A DNA stretch of 64,000 bases from the sequence record JN673056. One strand, given 5' to 3'. The notes beneath the pieces are model-generated. The model worked only from the letters and a program-made list of their open reading frames with translations. It was not told the origin of the DNA and ran no database searches. This DNA is from Escherichia phage PhaxI. Of this stretch, positions 12,351-54,766 are shown piece by piece (position 1 is the stretch's first letter; every line of letters begins with the position of its first letter). A program made the translations under genes and the position numbers.

Positions 12351-12809
12351 CTAATTAGTCGTCAATCTTTTAATCTTCATGGAAGAAAAATCAAATCCGT
12401 GGTCAACATTGCTTAAAACGGGTTCTATTTCACACAATTCCCAACGGGGATCTATGAGAGAAACAAGACCAATGTGTTCACCTGTGGATGTCAATTTTGC
12501 TGCAGTTTTACCCAGCATATGACTTCCATCATTACCGCCTTTATTCATGTTGTAACCCATCTCATAAGAATTATATTGAGCGATGAGTTGCTTCTCTAAT
12601 TCCCATTTATGGACTTCATCGGTCTGAGCAATTACAACGAAAGTAAATCCAGATGTTCCATACTTACGCATGGCATCATACAATTCACTTTGGACTCCAT
12701 GATGAAAAGCATTCGCAAAATGCTGATCATATCTTCGTTGTGGGTTATTGGTTACACCGATGTAGACCTTTCCATTAGTTATCGTTTCAATTTTGTATGC
12801 GTATATCAT
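12351..12809 (-). CDS. GIY-YIG homing endonuclease
   Basis: 152 aa; N-terminus IYAYKIETITNGKVYIGVTNNPQRRYDQH is a clear GIY-YIG catalytic motif. Confidence 0.8.
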   Translation of the reverse strand: MIYAYKIETITNGKVYIGVTNNPQRRYDQHFANAFHHGVQSELYDAMRKYGTSGFTFVVIAQTDEVHKWELEKQLIAQYNSYEMGYNMNKGGNDGSHMLGKTAAKLTSTGEHIGLVSLIDPRWELCEIEPVLSNVDHGFDFSSMKIKRLTTN

Positions 12810-12876
12810 TTCAAATTCACCTCTATTTTATTTAGTGTTGAACAATTTCGGGGTATTATGCTCTTGGAGGTGTTAT

Positions 12877-15640: not shown

Positions 15641-17851
15641 TCAATTCTTAAACCACTCATCCATGGTCATCCCTGACATTTCGTTGAAAACTTGAATACC
15701 CCCGAAACCAGGCAAATGCTCAGTTTCGGATGGGGTGTCTCCAACGACTAAACCGCCAAATGGGAATACCTGCTGGGATTCAGTTGAAGACATTCGGTTT
15801 CTCATGTCCTGAGAAATACTTGTAGATGTCAAGTCACTGAACCATTCTTGTTTTACCGCCCATGAATATAAGACCAACGGCATGACACAGTCATCGTGAC
15901 AACCGTCATCGGCTTCATACCGAGCGCCTTTGAACACAAATGTACTGAGTTCATCTATCGTGTCCTGGTCTTCTATCACCAACATTTCTTTCTCAATGAG
16001 CGCTTTCAGGTTAGCACAACCGATAGATCGGACTTTTCTGTTGGTATTGATACCAGGTTCCGGTTTACGTCCACCAATCCGTTTCCCCGTCCCTTTGTTA
16101 TCTGTTGATGTGAATATGATTTCTGGATATTCTATCTCTTGATAAAGAATTGTAATAACCTGACCGCCGACGTCGTTGTTTGTTTCAACAAGGACAGGAC
16201 ATTCCCCGTATTCGGTGCACATATCAGCTATCGTGTATGCATACATCATAGGAGGTATCGTATTATTCCTGTACTTGGCTGCTATGACATGCGGATATTC
16301 AGTTATATCCAGAATTGTTAAGACGGAATAATCTCCTTCCACCCCCTTCCCAGTGTCCGCAATCCCAAAGTAGAGACGTTGTGGGTCGTATTCCTTATAA
16401 ATCTTGGTGAATTCATTAGGTTCCCGATACAACTTGGACGTCATTTTATCTAAGCATTTGGCCGGAATCAATGAACCCACGGAACCACGGAACTTAATGC
16501 CAAATTCTTGATCGAAACGAGCATCCCCCAGACGGGCACGTTGTTTGGTTTCCCAATCTGGATCTTTGGTATATGCCGGAACCTTATACCATGGGACTTC
16601 AGTTAGGTGGAAGTCGTTGTATGGTGGATGGCGTGGATCTGCTTTGGTGACAATATCATAGAACAACCCTCGCTGGCCTTTCGGAGTACTTGTCAAAATA
16701 CAGCGTGATGTATCGGCAGATGCAATGGCTGGGAAAGTTGATTCCCAAAATTCAAAGTCGTTTTCGATAAACGCGACTTCGTCAACATACAGGAGCGATC
16801 GACGACCACGGATGGAGTTCCGAAGACTCGTGGCATAAGCGTATATCTTAGAACCATTCTCAAACTCTATCAGGGTAGAACCAAACTTCTCACAACCCTG
16901 CTGAAGGAAGAATGGAAGGTCTTGGTATGCCTTTCTGATACGGTCAAGAATTTCTATCGCTTGTTTCTCTTTGTTTGCCAGTACTGCGATTTCCTTATCA
17001 GAATGGAACATCGCGTACCAAAGAAGAAACGCCGCCACCACGGTCGTGTTATGACTGAGAAAGCCATTCGTGTAATAACGTTGATCACTAGATTTGACCT
17101 GCAGATCGTACATATGGTGATATTCACCAGTCTGCCAAATCTCACGGATTTCTTCTGGACCTTCGGTCGTCATGATGTATGACCCAGCATTCAGGTCTTT
17201 GGCAAATATCTCCTTCATGTCCGGAGTGAAGAACATATGTTCATCGGCCACGTTAATTCGCCTTCCGGTAACGGTGACAATAACGAATTCCGCATATTTC
17301 TTCGTCTTATGCGCTGCGATAACCGGAACCCAGCCACTATCGGATTGTACAAAGTAACGTTTGCCGAAGCGGCTGTCCACGAACTTGTCATGGTTGCCAA
17401 TGGTATTCAGCGGCACAGCGTGGTTGACGTCCTCGAAGCGGCTGTGAAGCTCCCCTATAGTCAGGAGCAACTCCTCTTGGCTGAGAGTATCGTAAACTGT
17501 GACAAGCGTGTCGCCTTTTACACATTTTCCGGACTGACGAGCCTGGACGACCGCATTAAATCGATAGTCCTGAAAGTCGTGGAACAACTGCTTCTGATAA
17601 TCATGCATATCGAAAAGGATAAAGCCCTTATCGATCGTGGTTATCTTGTAATAGTTGGCGGCGAAGTAGTGTGCATCCATAGAACATTCAACGAATTCGT
17701 CTTCTTGTTCATCTGTCAGCATTAACTCGACTCGAGGAGCACGCACAGAAAGTTTGCGCATGAACGTTTGGTCCATACGCAATTTTACATCGTCTATTTT
17801 GAACCCCGTTTTAATTGGGGCATATTCTATATCACGCTTCTGATACGCCAT
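15641..17851 (-). CDS. gp17: terminase large subunit (gp17-like) containing a mini-intein
   Basis: 736 aa; Walker A QARQSGK is interrupted and resumes with TTVVAAF; overlaps the small terminase gene at its 5' end; SD GAAGGAAG. Confidence 0.85.
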   Translation of the reverse strand: MAYQKRDIEYAPIKTGFKIDDVKLRMDQTFMRKLSVRAPRVELMLTDEQEDEFVECSMDAHYFAANYYKITTIDKGFILFDMHDYQKQLFHDFQDYRFNAVVQARQSGKCVKGDTLVTVYDTLSQEELLLTIGELHSRFEDVNHAVPLNTIGNHDKFVDSRFGKRYFVQSDSGWVPVIAAHKTKKYAEFVIVTVTGRRINVADEHMFFTPDMKEIFAKDLNAGSYIMTTEGPEEIREIWQTGEYHHMYDLQVKSSDQRYYTNGFLSHNTTVVAAFLLWYAMFHSDKEIAVLANKEKQAIEILDRIRKAYQDLPFFLQQGCEKFGSTLIEFENGSKIYAYATSLRNSIRGRRSLLYVDEVAFIENDFEFWESTFPAIASADTSRCILTSTPKGQRGLFYDIVTKADPRHPPYNDFHLTEVPWYKVPAYTKDPDWETKQRARLGDARFDQEFGIKFRGSVGSLIPAKCLDKMTSKLYREPNEFTKIYKEYDPQRLYFGIADTGKGVEGDYSVLTILDITEYPHVIAAKYRNNTIPPMMYAYTIADMCTEYGECPVLVETNNDVGGQVITILYQEIEYPEIIFTSTDNKGTGKRIGGRKPEPGINTNRKVRSIGCANLKALIEKEMLVIEDQDTIDELSTFVFKGARYEADDGCHDDCVMPLVLYSWAVKQEWFSDLTSTSISQDMRNRMSSTESQQVFPFGGLVVGDTPSETEHLPGFGGIQVFNEMSGMTMDEWFKN
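17048..17524 (-). mobile_element. mini-intein (159 aa) inserted in the terminase P-loop
   Basis: Begins CVKGDTLV (intein block A) directly after GK of the Walker A motif; ends YDLQVKSSDQRYYTNGFLSHN followed by extein T; excision would restore QARQSGKTT. Confidence 0.75.
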
Positions 17852-18512
17852 CGTCTTCTTCCTTCACATCAACTGTTTCACCATCAATGATTTCATCTTC
17901 TGGTTGTTGTGCGGCCTTTGCTTGTGCTCTTTCTTCAGCGCGACGGCGGGCATCTTCAATCGTCTTCAATAAATCGCGAGAAGATCGCGCCTTTTTCCCA
18001 ACCGATACTGTTGTTGTTCCGTCTGGTGAAGTTGTAACATCCACTGTCGTGTCATCAACAGGTGGTTCTTTATCACCTGTTACTGCCTTGATGGTTTTCT
18101 GGTTTTCCATCAAGTCTTTATTCAGACCGCGCATGAGTTCACCCAATTCACGGAAAACAGAAAATGCTCGCGGAGCTTCTGTGGATGCAGCCAATTTAGC
18201 GGCTTGTCCCATCATGAACATTGTGGCTTCTTGCATAGCATATGTTGTGTCGCGTATCCGTTTGTAATCCGTTGTAGCATCAGTGTCCGCAAACTCAGGT
18301 ACTTTGGATTCCTTGGAAGCAATATCCTCCAATGAAGGCGGTTCAGGAATCGGCTGATACCCTTCCGGACGTTCACCAAACCATTCACCTGTATTTTCAT
18401 CGAAGTCAATACCTGGACGAGGGGCGACAGCCTCCATCGCCTCCTTCCCGACTTCGTCTCGGGCAGTCACTGCATCAAGCGTGGCGAGTAACCTTTCTGA
18501 CATATTGCTCAT
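17832..18512 (-). CDS. terminase small subunit (gp16-like)
   Basis: 226 aa from ATG at 18512 with SD GGAGGA; acidic; immediately upstream of and overlapping the large terminase gene. Confidence 0.5.
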   Translation of the reverse strand: MSNMSERLLATLDAVTARDEVGKEAMEAVAPRPGIDFDENTGEWFGERPEGYQPIPEPPSLEDIASKESKVPEFADTDATTDYKRIRDTTYAMQEATMFMMGQAAKLAASTEAPRAFSVFRELGELMRGLNKDLMENQKTIKAVTGDKEPPVDDTTVDVTTSPDGTTTVSVGKKARSSRDLLKTIEDARRRAEERAQAKAAQQPEDEIIDGETVDVKEEDDGVSEA

Positions 18513-18514
18513 GA

Positions 18515-19213
18515 TCAATCCTCCGGATGATGTATGCCGTCTTTATCAACTCGGAACCACTCAGGAAGTTCCGACCATGGCATGTTCAAATCATTAGACA
18601 TTTCAATAATTATCTCTTTGATGACGTTTGGGTCCCCACCGCCCGAACCATCATCAACCCAATAATCTTCTCCATAGATGTGACCATGTAATTGAAAATT
18701 GAATGAACAATCTATGTGTGGTGATTCTGTTGCGTCTCCTTCCCAGTTGTCAGAAATCGTGTGATTTACCAACATTATCTTCACGTTCTGATCTTGAGAT
18801 AGCGTATCCGTGTCTTTTATCTGACAATCAATAGAAGGAGTGAACACAGAATAAATTTGTTCTAATACTTGCAACATTTCGACCAATTTTTTAGTTCTGA
18901 TATTGTATTCAAAATCTATAATGATCGGAATGCGTTGTTTGGACCGTGCCGTAGCGGTCGATATTTGGTTGTGGTATGACTTCGTCACCTGTTTATTGAT
19001 TTCGAACTGACCAAAGGACATTGTTGCAAATGGCAGCATATTGGCTGGCACGTTCCTGTTGAGGTCATTACGGCGGCCAATGGCCATATGCAGCGGGATT
19101 TCCATCAAGCCACGTTCGGTTTTGACTTTTAAATCTGACATGATAGCGTTGAACACATGTATGTATTTCAACAATGATTCATGATAGAAATATTTTTCAA
19201 ATGGTCTGGCCAT
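18515..19213 (-). CDS. tail completion/sheath stabilizer (gp15-like)
   Basis: 232 aa; position in the T4 13-14-15-16-17-18 order; synteny-based. Confidence 0.45.
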   Translation of the reverse strand: MARPFEKYFYHESLLKYIHVFNAIMSDLKVKTERGLMEIPLHMAIGRRNDLNRNVPANMLPFATMSFGQFEINKQVTKSYHNQISTATARSKQRIPIIIDFEYNIRTKKLVEMLQVLEQIYSVFTPSIDCQIKDTDTLSQDQNVKIMLVNHTISDNWEGDATESPHIDCSFNFQLHGHIYGEDYWVDDGSGGGDPNVIKEIIIEMSNDLNMPWSELPEWFRVDKDGIHHPED

Positions 19214-19215
19214 GA

Positions 19216-19857
19216 TTATTCCCCGAAGTCTATCTTCATTTTATTGGGCGAAAGATCTTTCTCTATTTCGTCCGCAAATTGGTTATCCGTTTGCAGGCTG
19301 GCGTCTTTGTACACACCGTCTCCTTCCAGATCCTGCAATCGTTTATCGATATCGTCTATTTCAGATACACCTGTATCGAAATCTTCGTTACCGTATTGGA
19401 ACAACGTACATGGTAGGGAATATGTGTACCATTTCCCAAATTGCATGAATTCTTCATCGTTATTCGGGTTATTCACTTTAAATATTTTGTTAGCCATAGG
19501 CAGATATATCAAATCACCTTCTTGAGGCATTTGTTCAAGGCCTGGACCATTACCAATAACTTCTGAAAAACGACGACGAGCAATAGTGAATGTCACTTCA
19601 TCTTGTAATTGGATACCGCCGAACTTTTCCCACATCTGTGTGTTGAAGCCTTGATAATCCTGCATATAAACTTCGATGTCAAACGCTTGGTCGAATTTGT
19701 GTTCGGCCTCGTTTAAAATTGGGTATTTTTCAACAATAGAACGTGGGATATACTTGACGTCAATCCCACGCAATTGTATCATCTCGACCACCAAGTCATC
19801 AATTAATTTTTGAGTACCTTGGTGTGAAGTGTAATTAAAGTATCGAGAAGTAGCCAT
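19216..19857 (-). CDS. neck protein (gp14-like)
   Basis: 213 aa; synteny; SD GAGGAAAA; CTAAATAT motif about 26 nt upstream. Confidence 0.45.
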   Translation of the reverse strand: MATSRYFNYTSHQGTQKLIDDLVVEMIQLRGIDVKYIPRSIVEKYPILNEAEHKFDQAFDIEVYMQDYQGFNTQMWEKFGGIQLQDEVTFTIARRRFSEVIGNGPGLEQMPQEGDLIYLPMANKIFKVNNPNNDEEFMQFGKWYTYSLPCTLFQYGNEDFDTGVSEIDDIDKRLQDLEGDGVYKDASLQTDNQFADEIEKDLSPNKMKIDFGE

Positions 19858-19915
19858 AATATTTTCCTCAAGATTTAAATATATTTAGTTGAATTTGTTT
19901 TTAAGGTGAATCAAT

Positions 19916-20626
19916 ATGATCGTCCTGACAGAAGGAATTGCTTCTAAAAGAATCAAATCATATGCTTCTTCTAGAGGTGGAATATTTCACGGATTTGTCG
20001 GTGGTAAATTTGTCACCAACCAAACTAAGTGCATTTTGTCTTGCGAATTTGGTCATGAATGGAACTCAGCAACTTATGCGAATTTGATAAATAAAGGAAG
20101 TTGGTGTCCTTCGTGTCGTGGAAACAAGAAGATCTCAAATGAAGAAGCTAAAATCAGGATATCGGAGTACGCCGTAAGCAACGGTGGTAAATTCATAAAT
20201 TTCATTGGCGGGAAGTACAAAGACAACGTGACAATTTGTGTCATGGAATGTTCTGAAACGCACAGGTGGGAATCCAGGTACGGTAATTTAGTCAACAGCC
20301 GAAGTTGGTGTCCGTATTGCGCAGAATCGGGTTACAATTATTCTAAGGAAGGTTTCTTATATATTCTAGTCAACGACGAAGGTTGTATGAAAGTGGGAAT
20401 AACCAACTCGCCTAAGAAACGTATAAATTGTTTGAGAAGCACCACCCCGTTTTACTTCAACGTTCTAGAAATATTTAATTCAACTGACGGATTATTTGTT
20501 TCCAGGTTGGAAAGAATTGCCCATAGAATGTGTAAGAGCGCGGGGTATAAGGATTTTGACGGTGCTACCGAATGGTTTGTATACGATGGATCAGTCGTAG
20601 ATTTTATCAGAAATATTTTGAAGTAG
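19916..20626 (+). CDS. T5orf172-type (GIY-YIG superfamily) endonuclease-like protein with tandem zinc-ribbon repeats
   Basis: 236 aa; two repeats of C..C.(FGH/ETH).W......WCP.C; C-terminal GFLYILVNDEGCMKVGITNSPKKR ... EWF matches the T5orf172 pattern; opposite strand to the flanking neck genes. Confidence 0.6.
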   Translation: MIVLTEGIASKRIKSYASSRGGIFHGFVGGKFVTNQTKCILSCEFGHEWNSATYANLINKGSWCPSCRGNKKISNEEAKIRISEYAVSNGGKFINFIGGKYKDNVTICVMECSETHRWESRYGNLVNSRSWCPYCAESGYNYSKEGFLYILVNDEGCMKVGITNSPKKRINCLRSTTPFYFNVLEIFNSTDGLFVSRLERIAHRMCKSAGYKDFDGATEWFVYDGSVVDFIRNILK

Positions 20627-20688
20627 CCATGACTTTACCTCAATTTTGAAGGTATTTAGTCAATCATTAATTCTTTTGAGAATGATAA

Positions 20689-20901
20689 ATGATGGTGGAA
20701 GATATTAAAGAAACTCGTGACGGAAGGCGTGTGAGAATTATCTGTGTAGACGCTAAATCCGCCGATGGTTCATATAACATTGTGGGTCTTATCAAAGACG
20801 AAAAGGGAAATGATTTTATTGAATGGTGGGATGAAAAGAACTTGGTTGATGGTTATATTCTAGCAAATTCAAATCCTTCCGACCGCGACATCAAGTTATA
20901 A
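20689..20901 (+). CDS. hypothetical small protein
   Basis: 70-aa ORF downstream of the endonuclease-like gene; ends at a bidirectional terminator. Confidence 0.4.
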   Translation: MMVEDIKETRDGRRVRIICVDAKSADGSYNIVGLIKDEKGNDFIEWWDEKNLVDGYILANSNPSDRDIKL

Positions 20902-20903
20902 AA

Positions 20904-20927
20904 GAAAGGCGGGATAACCCGCCTTTC
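20904..20927. terminator. bidirectional hairpin terminator
   Basis: AAAGGCGGG-ATAA-CCCGCCTTT perfect 9-bp hairpin between convergent genes. Confidence 0.6.
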
Positions 20928-20929
20928 TC

Positions 20930-21682
20930 TTATCCCATCATAAAATCGATAGGGTATTGCTGGCCAGTACGCAATTCTTCCTCCAACCGCTCTATCTCGG
21001 TCTCGGCCTCACTGAACATACTATCACCATCCAGTTCGATACCACCAGGGAGACGGATGCCTCTTGCCTTCTTAAGCACCTCTGCCCAACGGCGCTTGAC
21101 CAATGCAGTCGCATACGCTTTCAACCACATATCATTCCATGCTTCAGCGTTTTCTTCCGATTCGGGGTCGATATTTTGATAACAACGAAAAGCCAGGGTT
21201 TCATCAACAATGGCAGCAAACTGCGGGTAAAGGCGTCGCTGGAACTTCTTGTACACAAAATTACGGCGAACATTTAAGACGCTTGTGATATCCGACAGGC
21301 GTTGTTGCATGGAAACATAATCAATGAGACGAATAGAAACCAGCGCTGCTTTGGGGACAAGCATTGCTTGAGCCATTTGCCATTGAGGAGTTGCCCAGTT
21401 TCCGATTGACTCAATAGGAGGTCCAGGGATAACTTCAATCACATCGTCAATATCATCGGGAAATTCTATATATCCCTTGTCGATATCTTCTTGTTTAACT
21501 TGGTACAGGAAGAACGCATCTTGGCTACCATCACGATGATATTCCCAAAATTTCTGCAGAGCATCATCGACTGCATCTTCGACTTGTGAACTGTCAAGGT
21601 TAATTTGGATCACAGGAGCGCCCAATTTACGCAAGACATAATTCATAAAAGATTTTTTGTCTCGAATCTTATTGACGGCCAT
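20930..21682 (-). CDS. neck protein (gp13-like)
   Basis: 250 aa from ATG at 21682 with SD AAAGGGGA (track start 21739 is further upstream); synteny. Confidence 0.45.
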   Translation of the reverse strand: MAVNKIRDKKSFMNYVLRKLGAPVIQINLDSSQVEDAVDDALQKFWEYHRDGSQDAFFLYQVKQEDIDKGYIEFPDDIDDVIEVIPGPPIESIGNWATPQWQMAQAMLVPKAALVSIRLIDYVSMQQRLSDITSVLNVRRNFVYKKFQRRLYPQFAAIVDETLAFRCYQNIDPESEENAEAWNDMWLKAYATALVKRRWAEVLKKARGIRLPGGIELDGDSMFSEAETEIERLEEELRTGQQYPIDFMMG

Positions 21683-22010
21683 TGTTATTCCCCTTTTGCT
21701 GCAAATCAGATACAGTAATCCGCAGTGTGCGAACATCATCTGAAAGACTGCTGCTATTGAGTTTTAACTCAGCCATGTTTTGTTTGACATATGCGAGGTC
21801 AGTATTCATGATCGCCATACGTTCACTCATGTCATTCACTTTCTGAAGAACTTGATCCATCTTGTTGGAATCTCGTTCCAATACATTCACGCGCGTTTCC
21901 ATCCCGCCCATGAACCAAAGGAACGATGCTGCCGAGACCAATGCAGAAGCCACGACGGCAGTTAAGATACCACGGATGTCAAGCCCCGTTCTTTCAGCTT
22001 GCGTCGCCAT
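21669..22010 (-). CDS. membrane-anchored coiled-coil protein
   Basis: 113 aa; N-terminal hydrophobic helix then heptad-like region. Confidence 0.4.
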   Translation of the reverse strand: MATQAERTGLDIRGILTAVVASALVSAASFLWFMGGMETRVNVLERDSNKMDQVLQKVNDMSERMAIMNTDLAYVKQNMAELKLNSSSLSDDVRTLRITVSDLQQKGNNNGRQ

Positions 22011-22281
22011 TCTGACCTCCTTCGGGGATTTCGATCCCCAACTTTTCGGCCATCATTTTGATTGTCGCCTCCAGATTAGATATCTGGTTTGATTGTTCAA
22101 CAATGGTGGCTTCACGAGTTTCATTGCGTTGACGGGCTTGCAATGCAGCCATGCCAGCAGCGTGATCGGTGCAAATAATCGCGCCAGGGCAAGAACTGCT
22201 TCTCAACATGGATGCGTGCCCCTGTACTTTCATTCCACGCATATTTTTATCCTCTATTGGTTTGGTGGGCGTAAAGCCCAC
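21994..22281 (-). CDS. hypothetical small protein
   Basis: 95-aa ORF; start uncertain. Confidence 0.3.
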   Translation of the reverse strand: MGFTPTKPIEDKNMRGMKVQGHASMLRSSSCPGAIICTDHAAGMAALQARQRNETREATIVEQSNQISNLEATIKMMAEKLGIEIPEGGQNGDAS

Positions 22282-22295
22282 CTTTCAACATTATT

Positions 22296-25200
22296 TCATG
22301 CCAGAGCAATAAGACGGAAGTCTTTGAATGAAGGAGGAGCAACTCGGTTCCCCCTTACAAGTGCTCTGACTTTCAGTCCAACGAACGGATTGTTGCTTGC
22401 CACAGTCTTATCATACTCATATTCAAAGAATGTAGAACCGTCGTTAACCAGAGGCGAAGTTGGAGTAACGTCTTCCCAATCCACGCTATCCATCTCTTGA
22501 CCTGCTCGGAGCAGTTTTACCTGCACCTTCATGGAGGATTGAGAAGGCAGCATCGCCCCGAAGAACAACTTCACAGTAGAACACGGATTATCAAATCCGA
22601 TGTCCTTTGTCACGTATTTGAAGACATCTTCAAATGGATCCACACCGTATGAGTTGAAGATTACGCTCAGGTCATCGCCATCAATCATTGGAGCAGTGTA
22701 CACGTTGTTTTCACTACGCGTCATGGTGGCTCGGATTTGGAAATCCCCGACCTGACGATAGATACCTTCAGTCGGCAATGCCACGTCAGTGTCAGTTTCA
22801 AACTCAGCCCAATCAGACATAGAATTTGAAGTGGCATCGCGATAACGGTATTCCAATTTCAGAATTGAACCTTCCAGAGCCGAATTGGTAACGCTGGCAT
22901 AGAACATATCAACCAGATAATTGCCCAAGAAAGAAGCATTATCTCCACCGATTTGTCCATTGCTGTCTGCTGCCGTACCGACGTCAATCTTGAATGAAGT
23001 ATAGCTCGCATCTGTCACAGTAAACGTTTTGTTAAGTTGTTCAGGAGTAAAGCCACAACCGCCTGTCAATTCAGAAAGAGTGACATTGTTCCCAGCAACC
23101 AAACCATGACCAGGTGCAAACACAGTCACAACAGAAGACCCGCTTACGCAGTTCAGAGTATTCAATCCCAACGGACGTTGTTTTGGCCCGAGCTTCGGAT
23201 CAAATGTTACAACGTTCTGCCCCGCAGCGAAGTTACAACGATATATGCGGAATTTCATATCAGCCATTTGGTTTGGAGACCATGTAGAACCGTTTGAAGA
23301 AGTGAAGAACACCCCTGTATACGGTTGTTTGGCGATATATTCGTTGGACAGAAGGTTTTTCTTGCCCATTTCCGCGATATACGCGTTGTAATCCTGAGTA
23401 TTCGCCAACAAAACGATAGCAAACTCAGTCGATGCTTGCAGATACACCGGATAATCAAAGGTGAACTTCGTACCGCCGGAAGAGTCTGTAGAGATCGTCA
23501 CTTCAGACGGGTTCAAAGTTTTACGAGTAATGACTGTATGAGAAGGTAAGCCATTCTCCATCTCGCGAATTTCCAGAGTGATCGGAACATCACGTGACTT
23601 GGTAGAGAAGAATACTTCCACGCCTTCAATATACTCGCCGCCATTCTTAGTCGCTACCATAAACGATTGGGCAATCGGATCACGCCATTGGTCGACCACA
23701 ACTTCAGAAGTGCTGGTTTCGGTGCGAGTACTAGCAGTGTAACCCAGGACACGAGTGTTGACAAAGGTCTTTTGAATACCTTGTTTCTTACCGAAAGATT
23801 TATGAACAATTTCTGCATTGGTCAGTGTATCATCCGCAGATTTACTGTCAACAGGGCTATCCGTTAAGCGGAACACGTTGTCGCCTGTGTTGAACTTGAT
23901 TGTATCGTTCTGTGGAACGCGGAATATACCTTTAACAGCACCATTGGCATCAGTGGTGATTGGGTCACCGAAATTACCACCATTCGGTTTGCAATACAGA
24001 TTGACGTCACGACCAGAGAAGAACGCATACATACGAGTGAAAGGTCGCAGCCCAGATGCGTCGAAAGAAATATCGATCTCGCGCATGTATGGGATAACTT
24101 GCGTCTCCACAATCTGTTCACCAGTCATGGTCGTGGTTGTTTTGTCCGTGTATGTATATGCGGTGACATCACGGGCAGAAACAGTCGTGCGGTAAGGATA
24201 TCCCCCCCACACACCACCAGCGCCATGCGGTTCCCAAACACGATCAGAAACAGAAACAGTATGCCATGTTCCGTACACTGAACCTTCTTGTACAGTACCA
24301 CGGGTGTTGATCGTTTCATTGATAATACGCGGCGCAACATAATAGTTTTCGAACCAGTAGTCTGTGGTCGGGTTAATCTTCAAGAAACCTTCCCAATTGA
24401 ATACTGCATACGGGTTAACGTTGATCGTCGTCGTCGCATATTCTTGGTTCACTGAGATTTCAGGCGTGTAATTACAAACCACCATCCCATCCATCACTTT
24501 GTTCCAGCCAACAGGAGTCATGTCAACAACGTTCTGTTGTACAAACGGGCGTAGACGTCCGTTTTCGGTATCGATAGAACCCATCCAATCTTCAGACAAG
24601 TCATCAATCAACCGGAAGTCTTTGAACGGATCAGCTGCAATACCATTTTTGAAACGGGGATTGCCCGTGATGGGGTCGAACACTTGCTGTGTCATCGCTG
24701 AAGATTCCAACTGTGACAGAGAGGTATAGTATTCAACATTGGAAATACGGGTTTCCAGTTTACCGATATCGCGCATTGTATACCGACGATTATCAATAGT
24801 TCGAATTTGGATATCATCAATATTCGGCGTATACGGCGGGATCAACAGTTCATACAAACGCATGGCGTTCGCTGGGATTGCTGGAGAAGCCAGGTTGTTA
24901 GAACTGATGCCACGAGCCACTCCGAACACGCCGTTGTCTGCCAGATAAATCGCGTCGATGCGCGGCAGATAATATTCTGTGTCCAGAATAACTGCAGTGT
25001 TTGGACGAACCATATCTGTGTCAGAAGTTCCGTTGGTGATTTTCGGACGGAAATCCAAACTATCTGCCAGGCCGTACACCGCGCCTGATGTAGAAGATGT
25101 ATAATTCGGGATATCTTTATAATCCATCGAAGTATACGAATCAGCAGAGAAGAAATCACCGGAACTGTGGGCGAAGTATTGATACACCACTGTATACGTC

Positions 25201-29585: not shown

Positions 29586-32369
29586 TTAAATAGAAGAATC
29601 CAATATACGGTAACTAATTAACTTAGTAGGGTCTACAGGATTAATCAGGTTGTAGTACCGTGAAGATACATAATCATTCTCAGAAGAGAACATACCAACA
29701 TACACTTTAGCACCTACACCAGAACAGGCATCCCCACCAGCATTGCTATCCGAGAAGAATGTTAATGAGGAAGTTAATCCGAATATAGAATTAAATGGTA
29801 CGGCTAAATAAGCGCCTCGGAATGACCGTCTGATTCTCTTACCCGTCTGAATATTAAGAATACTCCACCAGAAATATCCAGGTTTAGCACCAATAGCTAT
29901 ATGATATGGTACACCACTTTGTAGTTTAAGGTCGTTAGGTAAATCCCCAGATAAAATTTGGGTTGTACCATCGCCCCCCAATAGCAAAGCAATTGTTTGT
30001 TTTCCAGAAGCGTCTATAACTAATTGAAGATGAAGACTGTTGGATGTATCACTAAACCCTGAACCAATGGCCATGAAGTTAAATACTTCAGCTCCAGATA
30101 TGGTAGGTACTACAACAGCAGCCATGGTAATACCTTCTGGACCTGCTGTTCTTGAATACAGTAATTTATCTTTGTTGGCTTGTGATAGTCTCAGACCATT
30201 TACTTGCCCTACAGAAGATGGGACACTTACATAAACAGGTGTAGTGCTAACACCATCAAATGTAGGGGTCTCGTTCATGGTTTGCAAACCAGTCTTGGAA
30301 TAATTAACCAATCCGTTAATGCTCAGGTCGGAATTGGTGGGGTTGATAATATTGTTATCACCAATAAAGTTAATGCCCATATAACCAGTCTCAACCACAC
30401 CATTAATGGTGACACTACAATCATTAGACAGGAACTGAAAATTGCCTGCACTAGAGTTAGCACCTGAACCACTATTCGCGGCATAATTGAGTCCTACGAA
30501 TCCGTTGATAACTGCATCGCTTTTGTTAAATACGATGTTGTAGAAAGTGTTGTTAGCATTGATGCCGTTACGATTGGTGTTCAATCCGTTCATGGAAATT
30601 GAATATGAATCGCTAATCTCAATGCCATTCCCGCCACAATCTTGTACCTCAATACCATTAATAACCATATTCTGGCTGTTATTAATAGTAATGCCTGGGA
30701 ACTGTCCTACTGTACCATAAGGTTGCCAGTTAGCCCAAATGAATTTACCGCCCAATAAATACGAACCATTACCACAACCATCAAGAACCAGACATTGTTT
30801 ACCGCAGGTATTAACCTGGATATTTGTCCAAGTCCAATCAGTAGTAGCACAACGGACACCCACCTGATTGATGTGGTTGACTAAAAGAGAATCTGTAGTA
30901 ACACTAAAGTTACCACTATCAATATTTAACCCATATTCATCAAAACCTGCTATATGGACCTTAGAAATACACAAGTCGCGTCTTGGGTCTGCGGTAGTGT
31001 GGAACGGATAATCGGCTGAGAGACCTGAAGGAGTTTCTACATAGATACCTGTTGTGCCCGCAGTAAATGGCATGCCTTGTTGTGCACCTGTGCCATATAC
31101 CCCAAAGGCGTCTAATACAATAAGGGAGCATGTATCTTTTATGGTAATACAATTCCCAGTAGCAGAAGGCAACTGATGCAACCTTGAGTAATGTAATCCA
31201 GACCCATAAATAGACGACGTATTATATTTTAACTGGATATTGCTAACGTAATGTGCATCAGTTAATTGTGTGGCCTTACCACTATCCACACAAGATTGTA
31301 CTGGAATAGTATCATCATTAGAACCACCCAAAGCACCAAACATGAATGGGTTAACTCTATCAGCATTAACACGTAACCATGCCGCGCCGCCAACAGTTTT
31401 GATCACAGTACCGTTATTATCAGTCTTTCCTGTACCATCAATTAACGCACGGAATACCCCTCCACCAAGAAGAGTACCCGCAGTGTGTTGCTTAAGAATA
31501 ATGCGTTGTCCATCCATAGTGGGTTCAGTATTCCTGAGATCAGCAACAGAATGGCATTCTCCAATATACTTGGCACCATCATTGCGCCCCAGAGTGTTTA
31601 TCACATTAATAAATGAATCCTCTAAAGGCAACAAATCAACCTGCACATCACCTGGGTTGTAATTCAATTTCCCAGCAGATACAGAAGAAATGACAGAACC
31701 ATCAGGAATGGTTGGTAAACCATAACTGGTTTGCGTCGCTATATCATAAACAACTTTCTTCCCATCCAACAAAGATATGGTGTCCGTACTAACGATGACT
31801 TCAGAGTCTTTTACATTAGCAGAACGGGCGATTTCTTGAATACTTCGGTCAAACGCCGGACTGATATTCGGTTGTTTAACAGACATTTCAGCGACTACCC
31901 AAACGCCTGCAGTCAGTGCAGTTTGCAAAGACACTTTCCCTGTCGTGCTGTTATAGGAATATTCAATTTCGGGTGTTTTGTACTCGCCACCGATATAAAG
32001 AGATTGGACACCATAGGATGTGAAATCAGGAGTGAACTCGGTTTCACCTCCCACGGCCTGAAATTTGTATATGCGGATACCTTTGGCTGTATCTTCTGGC
32101 GAAAGAATTTTATCGAATAAGCAATACACAACATCGCCTTTGGACAATGCGCGCCCGAGATTCAACGTATTTCCTTCGATTTCAAAGTTGTCTAACGGAA
32201 CTTGCATACCACCGTTGATTGTGACTACGCCAGTGACAGGATAGAACGGCAAGGAAAGGAAAGTTTCTCCACCAACATTTGATTTATACGTGAAAGGAAT
32301 CTGGTGGGGAGCTGTGATTACGCCGCCGAATAATTCTTCTACATTTCTGGTCATTTGAAAATACCCCAT
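29586..32369 (-). CDS. tailspike protein with right-handed beta-helix-like domain (927 aa)
   Basis: Asn/Gly/Ser-rich repeats such as NGIEISDSYSISMNGLNTNRNGINANN; related anchor segment near residue 170; CTAAATACCCC motif upstream. Confidence 0.65.
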   Translation of the reverse strand: MGYFQMTRNVEELFGGVITAPHQIPFTYKSNVGGETFLSLPFYPVTGVVTINGGMQVPLDNFEIEGNTLNLGRALSKGDVVYCLFDKILSPEDTAKGIRIYKFQAVGGETEFTPDFTSYGVQSLYIGGEYKTPEIEYSYNSTTGKVSLQTALTAGVWVVAEMSVKQPNISPAFDRSIQEIARSANVKDSEVIVSTDTISLLDGKKVVYDIATQTSYGLPTIPDGSVISSVSAGKLNYNPGDVQVDLLPLEDSFINVINTLGRNDGAKYIGECHSVADLRNTEPTMDGQRIILKQHTAGTLLGGGVFRALIDGTGKTDNNGTVIKTVGGAAWLRVNADRVNPFMFGALGGSNDDTIPVQSCVDSGKATQLTDAHYVSNIQLKYNTSSIYGSGLHYSRLHQLPSATGNCITIKDTCSLIVLDAFGVYGTGAQQGMPFTAGTTGIYVETPSGLSADYPFHTTADPRRDLCISKVHIAGFDEYGLNIDSGNFSVTTDSLLVNHINQVGVRCATTDWTWTNIQVNTCGKQCLVLDGCGNGSYLLGGKFIWANWQPYGTVGQFPGITINNSQNMVINGIEVQDCGGNGIEISDSYSISMNGLNTNRNGINANNTFYNIVFNKSDAVINGFVGLNYAANSGSGANSSAGNFQFLSNDCSVTINGVVETGYMGINFIGDNNIINPTNSDLSINGLVNYSKTGLQTMNETPTFDGVSTTPVYVSVPSSVGQVNGLRLSQANKDKLLYSRTAGPEGITMAAVVVPTISGAEVFNFMAIGSGFSDTSNSLHLQLVIDASGKQTIALLLGGDGTTQILSGDLPNDLKLQSGVPYHIAIGAKPGYFWWSILNIQTGKRIRRSFRGAYLAVPFNSIFGLTSSLTFFSDSNAGGDACSGVGAKVYVGMFSSENDYVSSRYYNLINPVDPTKLISYRILDSSI

Positions 32370-32386
32370 AAAGGATTTGCCAATAT

Positions 32387-32397
32387 GGGGTATTTAG
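32387..32397 (-). promoter_or_regulatory. late-promoter-like motif CTAAATACCCC
   Basis: Minus-strand CTAAATACCCC upstream of the 927-aa tailspike gene; embedded in inverted repeat AAATACCCCAT...ATGGGGTATTT. Confidence 0.45.
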
Positions 32398-35400: not shown

Positions 35401-35570
35401 TTGTAACGCACAGAAGATGGAAGACCTGTAACTTCAGTATCTTCAGGAAATGTCATTACGGCACCAGGGGAATGCTCAATAGTGCCGGAGTTGTTGAAGC
35501 CTTTTATGTTCGAAGACTCAGAAGTTTCTAAACCCAAAGGGAAAAGAGGCTGTGTTGGTTTGTTGGCCAT
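32460..35570 (-). CDS. tailspike protein (1036 aa)
   Basis: Internal domain VYFSVGAVLSGYKVIYDKVTQRSYFIP...YRWDG nearly identical to the N-terminus of the 474-aa ORF; beta-helix-like repeats; CTAAATACCCC motif upstream. Confidence 0.65.
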   Translation of the reverse strand: MANKPTQPLFPLGLETSESSNIKGFNNSGTIEHSPGAVMTFPEDTEVTGLPSSVRYNPDSDEFEGYYENGGWLSLGGGGIRWETLPHAPSSNLLEGRGYLINNTTGTSTVVLPSPTRIGDSVTICDAYGKFATYPLTVSPSGNNLYGSTEDMAITTDNVSATFTWSGHEQGWVITSGVGLGQGRVYSREIFTQILASETSAVTLNTPPTIVDVYADGKRLAESKYSLDGNVITFSPSLPASTELQVIEYTPIQLGNGGGSSSSTITWVYNGGSAIGGETEITLDIVVDDVPAIDINGSRQYKNLGFTFDPLTSKITLAQELDAEDEVVVIINGTPNIYNQIDYTLREVARVTNVKDTEVVYFSVGAVLSGYKVIYDKVTQRSYFIPELPTGTTAVSLSSSAVLVHSAGSVDLGALAVSREEYVTLSGTFDSGAVINTKNELLTHTNGKYRWDGSLPKTVDAGSTPETSGGVGLGAWLSVGVASLKSNLNKPNGLSYIGTVSSVSELSSIAGLIGDSIILDSYVDGFNLGGGVMVAVNSDTVVDNIVTFQGNGVVWKRKLFNGVVDVYEAGYTGTGDLAIFINKINAVGFDCVVPVSGEITTPIIFDIAKGALIGKNKCTLIESASATGGYYLTIVNTDTDYTNRDVINATALMTGVSFVGKGTRKLAIGGSTSGEVSELRISNCGFISTAGIEFLDNAYRILFDKCTLSRSFTNSVIFNSPANSGEVIKFNHCWMVDNGGPFTFVNGQFIFDSCSLPAVKKSRYFDPVVALSDNATMVFTNGNIEYQPGQSFVGFTVDGSSRLSISDSTILLPNDYSTVPIVNNGDGVVILNNCSLPLYGNTTIATGFATRQLIGGLSKKVMSRGCYPRAGFITSNWDLGCIVSPHINSISNGSGQFNNISNWALSQTGSGVVTATVGNDVPNDLMFSTSFVLSVPSVGAAANFTQTIIDCEPGRYFQLGFWAKNTTTTLASIRFLDQQGNAVADSIGYNIPVGNTFNFYALVDCVPPGAYKAEINFNVSSIVGGIAIHNVIYGLI

Positions 35571-35603
35571 TTGTAATACCCCTAAATGTATTCATGTCAT
35601 CTA

Positions 35604-35614
35604 GGGGTATTTAG
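35604..35614 (-). promoter_or_regulatory. late-promoter-like motif CTAAATACCCC
   Basis: Minus-strand CTAAATACCCC upstream of the 1036-aa tailspike gene; inverted repeat with TAATACCCCTA at 35574-35584. Confidence 0.45.
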
Positions 35615-39450: not shown

Positions 39451-39766
39451 CCAACGGGAATCAAAACGCTCGCGCGCGTTTAATTTATTCGAATATACTC
39501 GCGAGGGGGCTGACGCCCTCGCTCGTAACACCGCCTTGACAGGCAGTCCCATTCCGCAGCCATGGAGGCTGCTTCTCGTTGTTCGTTAACACTCACAACT
39601 CGAAGGGCACCGCGTTAAGATACAGTTTCTTGATGTTGTAGAAAAGTAGTTTTTACCTATTAATAATCACTGTCATTATTTTATTGGCCATTCCTGCGTT
39701 TATATTCAATAAACGTATCCCCAATATAATAATGGAGACATTTAATCAATTCGGTGAGGCTCCGGA

Positions 39767-43583: not shown

Positions 43584-43689
43584 AACACAATGAGAGAAAC
43601 TGAAGTGAGAAAGCTCGGTTAAACGAGGGAGTAATTCAGGAGTATCTCACCACTAAATAAACCAGTTGTTCAATAAACAATTGGTGAGT

Positions 43690-48185: not shown

Positions 48186-48196
48186 CTAAATACCCC
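48186..48196 (+). promoter_or_regulatory. late-promoter-like motif CTAAATACCCC
   Basis: Exact CTAAATACCCC about 23 nt upstream of the ATG at 48219; part of inverted repeat ATACCCCA...TGGGGTAT. Confidence 0.45.
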
Positions 48197-48218
48197 ATAC
48201 GACCAGTGTGGGGTATCT

Positions 48219-48668
48219 ATGAAAACCTTTCTAGAATTTTATCGCGAATCAACGTTACCTGATTTTACGAATATCGTTTTGTATCATGGGTCTAATGTTG
48301 AATTCGATATATTTGATTTTGAAAAATTTGGCCAGACTGACTCTGGTACGATGGGTGCTGGATTTTACCTGACAGGGGATCCAGAAAAGGCACAGATCTA
48401 CGCAGAAAATGCCGTGCGCTATCGTCAATCTGGTGAACCTGTTGTCATGGCATTTCGTGTTAAGGCCAAGAAGACTCTTGTAATAGATTCCAACAATGTT
48501 TCGGTGTGGGAAAATAAAATGCGAGAGTTGGGGATAAAGCCTGGTAAGATACATGATAATGTGAAAGAACTTGTCAACAAAGGGTTCGATTCTATAGCCT
48601 CTATGAGTGCCAATAACGTTGAGGAAATGGTGGTGTTTAAGCCAGGGCTGGCGACCAGAGAAGCCTAA
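48219..48668 (+). CDS. hypothetical protein with ADP-ribosyltransferase-like motif arrangement (speculative)
   Basis: 149 aa; LYHGS ... GAGFYLT ... VEEMVVF spacing resembles H-Y-E class ADP-ribosyltransferases; CTAAATACCCC motif upstream. Confidence 0.35.
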   Translation: MKTFLEFYRESTLPDFTNIVLYHGSNVEFDIFDFEKFGQTDSGTMGAGFYLTGDPEKAQIYAENAVRYRQSGEPVVMAFRVKAKKTLVIDSNNVSVWENKMRELGIKPGKIHDNVKELVNKGFDSIASMSANNVEEMVVFKPGLATREA

Positions 48669-54706: not shown

Positions 54707-54766
54707 TTCAATAAACCAAAGGGGGATATAATTCCCCCTGTTATCCCTTTGACAACAGGTATTGTT

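Follow-up and report, generated by a model that had tools for sequence, protein, structure and literature searches.

Why do two plus-strand genes stand between two minus-strand neck genes of a phage, and from where is the second neck gene transcribed? This question is raised by a 64,000-nt stretch of DNA (hereafter the window; sequence record JN673056) from Escherichia phage PhaxI, a ViI-like myovirus (Ackermannviridae, Cvivirinae, Kuttervirus), in which minus-strand genes follow the order gp13, gp14, gp15, small terminase and large terminase. Between gp14 and gp13 lie two open reading frames (ORFs) of the opposite strand, one of 236 aa (19916-20626) and one of 70 aa (20689-20901), exactly where a preliminary description of the window had placed them. 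That description took the pair for an inserted cassette and proposed that late transcription towards gp14 starts at a motif beyond the first ORF and runs antisense across it. We consider it very probable that the 236-aa gene alone is the invader, a free-standing homing endonuclease gene (HEG) of the T5orf172/CapR type that entered the junction between the promoter and the start of gp14 and supplied gp14 with a substitute promoter.

Across this region (18500-22300), for which 266 phage records give matches, the window shares 98.8% identity with Escherichia phage EP75; here and below, presence and absence are counted in records of a phage sequence collection. The uninterrupted junction of gp14 with the small ORF, termed the empty site, occurs in 144 Kuttervirus records, so that, in line with the preliminary description, the insertion is not universal among relatives. 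The endonuclease allele of the window is found in 10 Kuttervirus, 1 Agtrevirus and 15 Limestonevirus records, a Se-J-type allele (309 aa, with three zinc ribbons) in eight and a Mutine-type allele (238 aa) in 13. When the window is compared with Kuttervirus relatives, the flanks are 99-100% identical and the endonuclease region is either absent or 57-76% identical. Judged from these genomes, the endonuclease gene alone is the variable insertion, and three alleles appear to compete for one site. The Mutine allele has the left junction and start of the EP75 type, and its 3' 532 nt are 98% identical to Se-J; its description as a simple EP75/Se-J chimera was only partly supported, as its first zinc ribbon is close to neither. 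A literature search found no description of the insertion anatomy, of the three alleles or of transfer between subfamilies.

The insert measures 773 bp, and at its two ends the gp14 start is repeated over 20 nt in direct orientation. Its parts, and those of the gene start that it interrupts, are as follows.

19916-20626, plus strand: free-standing HEG of 236 aa, recognized by Pfam and phrog matches.
19838-19857 (the live gp14 start) and 20611-20630: 20-nt direct repeat found by repeat search, 80% identical, with 11 nt exact (GAAGTAGCCAT) and a spacing of 773 nt.
20607-20630, minus strand: remnant gp14 start, ATG GCT ACT TCA AAA TAT TTC (MATSKYF) followed by TGA, recognized by alignment with the CBA120 empty site and by the direct repeat.
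20637-20641, minus strand: orphaned ancestral gp14 Shine-Dalgarno sequence GAGGT, recognized by alignment; it reads GAGGGT in CBA120 and EP75 and has a 1-nt deletion here.
20651-20659, minus strand: orphaned ancestral late-type motif CTAAATACC (ggtatttag on the plus strand), pointing antisense through the endonuclease gene towards gp14.
19862-19869, minus strand: cassette-borne gp14 Shine-Dalgarno sequence GAGGAAAA, read from the sequence.
19880-19888, minus strand: late-type motif CTAAATATA brought by the cassette, 31 nt before the live gp14 ATG.
19903-19909, plus strand: Shine-Dalgarno sequence AAGGTGA of the endonuclease gene, read from the sequence.
19822-19857, minus strand: recoded 5' end of gp14 (nt 1-36), where the homing site and the co-conversion tract probably lie.

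In empty-site phages the minus strand reads CTAAATACC, then 21 nt that include GAGGGT, then the ATG of gp14; in CBA120, Vi01, Det7, SeF3a and RPN242 the motif begins 30 nt before this ATG. This ancestral unit of motif, Shine-Dalgarno sequence and ATG is kept entire in the window at 20607-20659, directly 3' of the endonuclease, where the plus strand of the gp14 remnant encodes the last residues of the endonuclease (N-I-L-K) and its TAG stop codon. The minus-oriented motif that the preliminary description had flagged at about 20653-20659 is the CTAAATACC of this unit, and it is directed through the endonuclease gene as described. On the evidence of the alignments, it is gp14's putative ancestral late promoter, which the insertion orphaned along with the former ribosome-binding site, the ATG and the first seven codons. 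Its distal copy is kept in all three endonuclease alleles at the locus. Transcription from it would indeed be antisense to the endonuclease, as had been proposed; it lies, however, between the two ORFs rather than beyond both, and is thus antisense to the endonuclease gene only.

The preliminary description had recognized a single late motif directed towards gp14 and had missed a second one, CTAAATATA, on the near side of the insertion. The live gp14 start (19857) is preceded by a 58-nt spacer that is unlike the ancestral sequence and is identical in EP75, Mutine, LIMEstone1, Ds20CZ and pSal-SNUABM-02, and this spacer carries both the second motif and a Shine-Dalgarno sequence. The distance from motif to ATG at the gp14 start is 28-31 nt in all genomes compared. 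The Se-J allele has another left junction and yet places CTAAATACC 28 nt upstream of gp14, while keeping the distal copy, which overlaps its stop codon. In the GenBank record of LIMEstone1, the -10 signal of a 'putative late promoter' overlaps the equivalent of the proximal motif on both strands. CTAAATATA at 19880-19888 is therefore probably the operative gp14 promoter, and with this motif and a Shine-Dalgarno sequence so near the live ATG, expression of gp14 need not rely on antisense read-through.

The 70-aa ORF has a different history. A tblastn search finds it in 286 Ackermannviridae records, among them phages of Salmonella, Klebsiella, Escherichia, Dickeya, Vibrio, Erwinia and other hosts. 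Both it and the hairpin that follows are kept in the endonuclease-less phages CBA120, Vi01, Det7, SeF3a and Maynard (Kuttervirus) and RPN242 (Aglimvirinae). Of the two-gene cassette originally proposed, the insertion of the endonuclease thus stands; the small ORF and the hairpin are, by this comparison, resident features that lie outside the mobile element.

20689-20901, plus strand: resident 70-aa gene (phrog_4466, 1.3e-42).
20903-20928: hairpin with a perfect 11-bp stem and a 4-nt loop, found by folding, between the convergent small ORF and gp13.

Folding of the hairpin gives -21.1 kcal/mol with z -7.7 for the plus strand and -25.9 kcal/mol with z -6.1 for the minus strand, and the records of LIMEstone1 and Maynard both annotate a terminator there. 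It is a probable bidirectional terminator, even though a consensus terminator scan did not flag this very stable structure, probably because its T-run falls partly within the stem. Its position after gp13 implies that gp14 needs a promoter of its own in every member of the family. The small-ORF region (20660-20930) is 94.8% identical to CBA120 and 98.1% identical to Maynard, which lacks the HEG, and the Shine-Dalgarno region of the small ORF has a 2-nt deletion in the window (GAGAA--TGATAA versus GAGGAATTGATAA). The small ORF itself is 98% identical to Maynard and 95% to CBA120, while the adjoining gp13 is 100% identical to CBA120, which indicates a recombination boundary at the right edge of the endonuclease. 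We also considered an Aglimvirinae donor for the window-specific single-nucleotide differences in the small ORF and terminator, and dropped the claim; the match of 14 of 24 positions was inflated by a 1-nt alignment shift in the hairpin.

The product of the 236-aa gene has the architecture expected of a mobile nuclease, and here the preliminary description, which had noted tandem zinc ribbons and a T5orf172/GIY-YIG-like C-terminus, is borne out by Pfam matches above the cut-offs.

About aa 9-68: zinc ribbon 1.
aa 78-136: zinc ribbon 2.
aa 146-231: T5orf172/GIY-YIG nuclease domain.

The CapR homology domain (PF21817) matches in two stretches with 50.2 bits (cut-off 24.2), and residues 146-231 match both MUG113 (PF13455; 37.8 bits, cut-off 22.3) and T5orf172 (PF10544; 29.3 bits, cut-off 20); the protein also matches phrog_681, 'endonuclease', at 1e-58. 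The nuclease domain conforms to the GIY-YIG alpha/beta fold. Residues Y149, K159, G161, R169 and E219 are unchanged across four alleles that are 60-93% identical, and from general knowledge of GIY-YIG enzymes we take these to be residues of the catalytic type (the Tyr of 'GIY', the K/Y-x-G motif, Arg and Glu). Even between alleles with no more than 60-65% identity, these residues and all Cys and His of the zinc ribbons are conserved. The zinc ligands C43, H47, C64, C67, C112, H116, C132 and C135 are invariant or nearly so in an alignment of 20 sequences, and the copy in the window has all Cys and His ligands and all nuclease motifs intact. Between endonuclease alleles the ratio of non-synonymous to synonymous substitution (dN/dS) is ~0.1 over the whole protein, and the endonuclease is under purifying selection. 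GenBank records label the gene 'endonuclease' or 'putative GIY-YIG endonuclease', and the NCBI PhaxI 'endonuclease' protein is 100% identical to it. Outside the Ackermannviridae, in phages of Vibrio, T5-like phages and others, HEGs are only ~30-35% identical to it. A sequence search of solved structures with the endonuclease returned chance matches only (E 0.1 or worse), and tblastn revealed no paralogues of it elsewhere in the window. In the copy of Dickeya phage Ds20CZ, Cys135, the last Cys of the second zinc ribbon, is replaced by Tyr (WCPYYA versus WCPYCA), which may weaken DNA binding.

Mobility is most evident from the comparison with Ds20CZ, a phage of the subfamily Aglimvirinae (Limestonevirus) that carries the gene at the same insertion site. 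Identities between the window and Ds20CZ are as follows.

Insert (spacer and endonuclease): 715 of 766 positions identical (93%).
gp14 nt 1-27: 26 of 27 positions identical.
Rest of gp14: 74%; gp15: 74%.
gp13: 76%; small ORF: 68%.

An insert that is 93% identical between flanks that are ~75% identical, in a Kuttervirus and a Limestonevirus, argues for horizontal transfer, and the sequence comparison shows the HEG to have moved between phage subfamilies together with gp14 nt 1-27. On the other side of the insert, the gp14-start remnant of the Dickeya phage is native Aglimvirinae sequence, identical to the empty-site phage RPN242, and the right crossover was thus at the extreme 3' end of the endonuclease.

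The 5' end of gp14 bears a matching signature. Compared with CBA120, gp14 of the window has 10 differences, mostly synonymous, in nt 1-36 and a single one in the other 606 nt (Fisher p ~9e-13). In every endonuclease-bearing genome nt 12-36 are recoded: these genomes read CGA TAC (AAA TAC TTT in Se-J) where empty-site genomes have AAA TAT TTC AA. The recoding likely marks the target site of the enzyme. Codons 2-12 vary also in two phages with the empty site, SeF3a reading TCG AAA TAT TTC AAT TAC ACT and Det7 ...TAT CTC AAC CAC; these variants could be resistant target alleles or scars of endonuclease gain and loss.

CTAAATAcCcc has been named as a regulatory motif of Ackermannviridae (PMC7283392). 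The core is matched at 20651-20659 (CTAAATACC, then TT) and at 19880-19888 (CTAAATATA), and the full cCcc tail is present at neither. In the window CTAAATAYM occurs nine times, eight of them on the minus strand, against 1.8 expected, and 1 of 100 shuffles attained this number. CTAAATA itself has 17 copies, 12 of which stand 26-49 nt upstream of an ORF start on the same strand; a 13th (20653-20659) stands 29 nt upstream of the remnant gp14 ATG. The genes so preceded include those for the tail sheath, a baseplate wedge protein, two tail spikes, the head scaffold, a 1612-aa virion protein and gp14. For T4-type late promoters a -10-like element alone suffices, a point also restated in the CBA120 paper. 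This distribution supports CTAAATA as the putative late-promoter core of Ackermannviridae.

Three full CTAAATACCCC motifs, at 48186-48230 (plus), 35570-35614 (minus) and 32369-32397 (minus), form the 5' arm of an inverted repeat whose 3' arm (GGGGTAT...) stops a few nt before the start codon downstream, which belongs to the two tail spikes and a 149-aa ORF. These repeats could be an overlap of terminator and promoter or a structure of the 5' untranslated region; both motifs at the gp14 locus are without such a repeat.

For the plus strand, two overlapping sequences within gp14 are promoter candidates.

19727-19782, plus strand: two overlapping sigma-70-like candidates, TTTTCA-16-TATACT and TTGACG-17-TATCAT, inside gp14 and antisense to it.

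They are a possible promoter for the endonuclease and the small ORF, and are partly conserved in Aglimvirinae, where conservation is confounded by coding constraint. The second published motif of Ackermannviridae, TTCAAT-N14-TATAAT (PMC7283392), has one match upstream of the HEG (19729-19754), which with two mismatches, and 11 chance matches expected, is a candidate only. Elsewhere in the window this second motif occurs in exact form at 39705-39730 and 54707-54732 (plus) and with one mismatch at 43669, 46064, 59317 and 62302 (plus) and 50752 (minus), often as TTCAATAAA; with up to two mismatches there are 23 matches against 11.4 expected, and the sites are probably early promoters. No RNA hairpin that would hide the ribosome-binding site of the endonuclease, as in T4 HEGs, was supported, the segment 19858-19960 folding with -15 kcal/mol (z = -0.31).

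Together these observations are consistent with the following sequence of events, in which the homing steps are modelled on established phage homing (PMC2988022). In a mixed infection, the enzyme would cut the allele that lacks the HEG, within gp14 codons 4-12 or close to them, and recombinational repair would copy the HEG with short flanks into the cut genome. The recoded gp14 start and the split site would then protect the carrier genome, and the cassette-borne motif and Shine-Dalgarno sequence would restore gp14 expression, so that late expression of gp14-gp17 would start from the proximal motif. The HEG and small ORF would probably be co-transcribed from a plus-strand promoter antisense to the 5' region of gp14. 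Antisense transcription from the orphan promoter is plausible from its geometry; the distal motif probably still fires, in which case a late RNA antisense to the whole HEG would continue into gp14. Such a transcript could add to gp14 transcription and damp late expression of the HEG, and gp14 would not depend on it.

Several points weigh against this reading. Cleavage by the enzyme, its cut site and homing itself are all things that we infer. The late-promoter role of CTAAATA derives from position and enrichment only; we found no transcription-start mapping or RNA-seq in the literature for any Ackermannviridae phage, and the 2011 paper on CBA120 reports the late promoter as unidentified. The gp14 5' end is polymorphic among empty-site genomes too (Det7, SeF3a), and older variation, not immunity, could account for some of the recoding. 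That the distal motif is retained says nothing about its function, because the motif overlaps the upstream region of the small ORF and, in two alleles, the stop codon of the HEG. An extension of the proposal, which we regard as unlikely, is that the orphan promoter is kept as a working part. Late transcription from it, antisense to the endonuclease gene and converging on it, would turn the nuclease off during packaging, and the half homing-site beside it might serve the enzyme as an operator, in the manner of I-TevI or CapR. In all three alleles at the locus the distal late motif does stand immediately 3' of the HEG stop; if the extension were true, this opposite-strand homing endonuclease of a late operon would have in the orphan promoter an antisense timer maintained by selection.

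The arrangement as first described, a two-gene opposite-strand cassette with gp14 transcribed from 20651-20659 alone and an obligatory antisense RNA over the endonuclease, draws on real features of the locus. The distal motif points to gp14 and is identical to the promoter-like motif of gp14 in empty-site phages, and the hairpin after gp13 implies a promoter dedicated to gp14. We nevertheless hold it very doubtful, given that the small ORF is resident in all empty-site genomes inspected, among its 286 records, and that a second motif and Shine-Dalgarno sequence precede the live gp14 ATG in every genome with the window allele, at a spacing of 31 nt that fits the range conserved at this start. 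The protein might instead be a domesticated DNA-binding regulator, comparable to PLE CapR or to I-TevI as autorepressor, that binds the gp14 remnant or the new promoter and tunes expression of the late neck genes or of itself. CapR is a domesticated relative of T5orf172 HEGs that represses a phage capsid gene (PMC8096241, PMC10448857), I-TevI shuts down the late promoter of its own gene by way of an operator that is similar to its homing site (PMC2988022), and a half-copy of the presumed homing site does lie beside a late motif at the 3' end of the endonuclease gene. The nuclease domain, however, is intact and conserved, with Y149, R169 and E219 invariant and the low dN/dS extending over the whole protein, and the sporadic distribution, three alleles and recent cross-subfamily transfer with short co-converted flanks speak for mobility and not for a fixed regulator. 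We hold domestication, too, very doubtful, although the roles of regulator and homing enzyme are not mutually exclusive. Least probable of all, in our estimation scarcely credible, is an inert relic that arrived by one illegitimate recombination and is now decaying. The substitution of Cys135 in Ds20CZ and the missing base of the orphan Shine-Dalgarno sequence in the window would suit such decay, but the dN/dS between alleles and the complete set of Cys/His ligands and nuclease motifs in the window copy would not. Moreover, the endonuclease copies of seven Kuttervirus phages are 98.2-99.9% identical, and a related allele occupies the same site in two other genera.

The genes that flank the insertion were assigned as follows.

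20930-21682, minus strand: gp13-like gene for a neck or head-tail adaptor (Ad2) protein (phrog_211, 4e-43).
19216-19857, minus strand: gp14-like gene for a neck or head-closure (Hc2) protein (Pfam T4_neck-protein, 1.1e-26; phrog_679, 1.7e-74).
18515-19213, minus strand: gp15.

The counterpart of the second is annotated as gp14 or Hc2 in CBA120, EP75 and Vi01. For gp13 the mechanically called ORF extends to 21739, and the start at 21682, giving a 753-nt gene, is that of the relatives' annotation; the gene is 100% identical to that of CBA120.

Two further features of the window deserve mention. A second free-standing HEG of 152 aa (12351-12809, minus) matches phrog_5123, 'homing endonuclease with GIY-YIG motif', at 2e-93. 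This gene follows closely on the downstream side of the tail sheath gene and has the orientation of the late operon, with CTAAATA (12829-12835, minus) 26 nt upstream of its ATG; it is probably the segD-like orf195 mentioned for CBA120. The large terminase gene (15641-17851, minus) has an intein-like insertion in its ATPase domain, at about residues 110-262, from a Cys (CVKGDTLV...) to ...SHN|T, for which Pfam Intein_splicing scores 29.6 bits, below the cut-off. This segment is present in 185 of 187 matching records and falls into two classes, one of 82 records with at least 95% identity and one of 76 records with 80-90%, in genomes otherwise near-identical; Erwinia phage phiEa2809 matched 20% of the query only.

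The locus thus illustrates how, in nature, a selfish nuclease gene can enter the beginning of an essential late gene and leave the phage viable: the element brings a probable replacement promoter, a ribosome-binding site and recoded first codons, and takes its own stop codon from the gene start that it displaced. It points to gp14 codons 4-12 as the probable natural cleavage site and to the right edge of the HEG as a likely recombination boundary, and documents movement of a T5orf172/CapR HEG between subfamilies of Ackermannviridae, phages widely proposed for biocontrol of Salmonella, E. coli O157 and Dickeya. For annotation, the idea of a two-gene cassette is corrected. We regard the locus as a clean but ordinary case of a known kind of mobile element, one that does not overturn current understanding.

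HEGs that combine T5orf172 and CapR domains are known to lie beside essential phage genes and at recombination boundaries (PMC10448857; Barth, Dunham & Seed 2023). Those of vibriophage ICP1 and other phages share with the PhaxI gene the same two Pfam domains in the same order, repeated zinc ribbons followed by T5orf172, with a repeat number that varies by allele (two ribbons here, three in Se-J); they too reside beside essential structural genes and at the boundary of genetic exchange (PMC10448857). That study does not mention Ackermannviridae, and the duplicated gene start and replaced late promoter are specific to the gp14 locus. PLE CapR, a domesticated DNA-binding domain of a T5orf172 HEG and repressor of the ICP1 capsid gene, has the CapR homology zinc-ribbon domain in common with the PhaxI protein. 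The latter differs in that its nuclease domain has been kept and is conserved, and in that its gene has the behaviour of a mobile one. I-TevI, a GIY-YIG nuclease with a zinc finger that is both homing enzyme and autorepressor, differs in being intron-encoded, in its DNA-binding architecture and in having no detectable sequence similarity.

In phage T4, the segG, segA, segE, mobB and mobC cassettes likewise displaced a host promoter and supplied a functional replacement, which favours their retention (PMC2988022). Their promoters lie within the coding sequence of a co-oriented HEG, whereas the PhaxI HEG is on the opposite strand, its probable replacement promoter belongs to the 58-nt spacer, and an orphaned copy of the old one is still there. 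T4 segD is a free-standing GIY-YIG HEG between late genes 23 and 24 and the sole T4 HEG antisense to its late neighbours, an orientation that exposes it to late antisense transcription (PMC2988022). It belongs to the classical GIY-YIG Seg family and not to T5orf172/CapR; neither a promoter specific to segD nor a host promoter that was displaced or duplicated is described for it, and the PhaxI HEG, by contrast, shares its strand with a resident small gene and terminator. T4 segD is thus the closest analogue of the PhaxI HEG in position, and the T5orf172 and CapR HEGs are its closest family.

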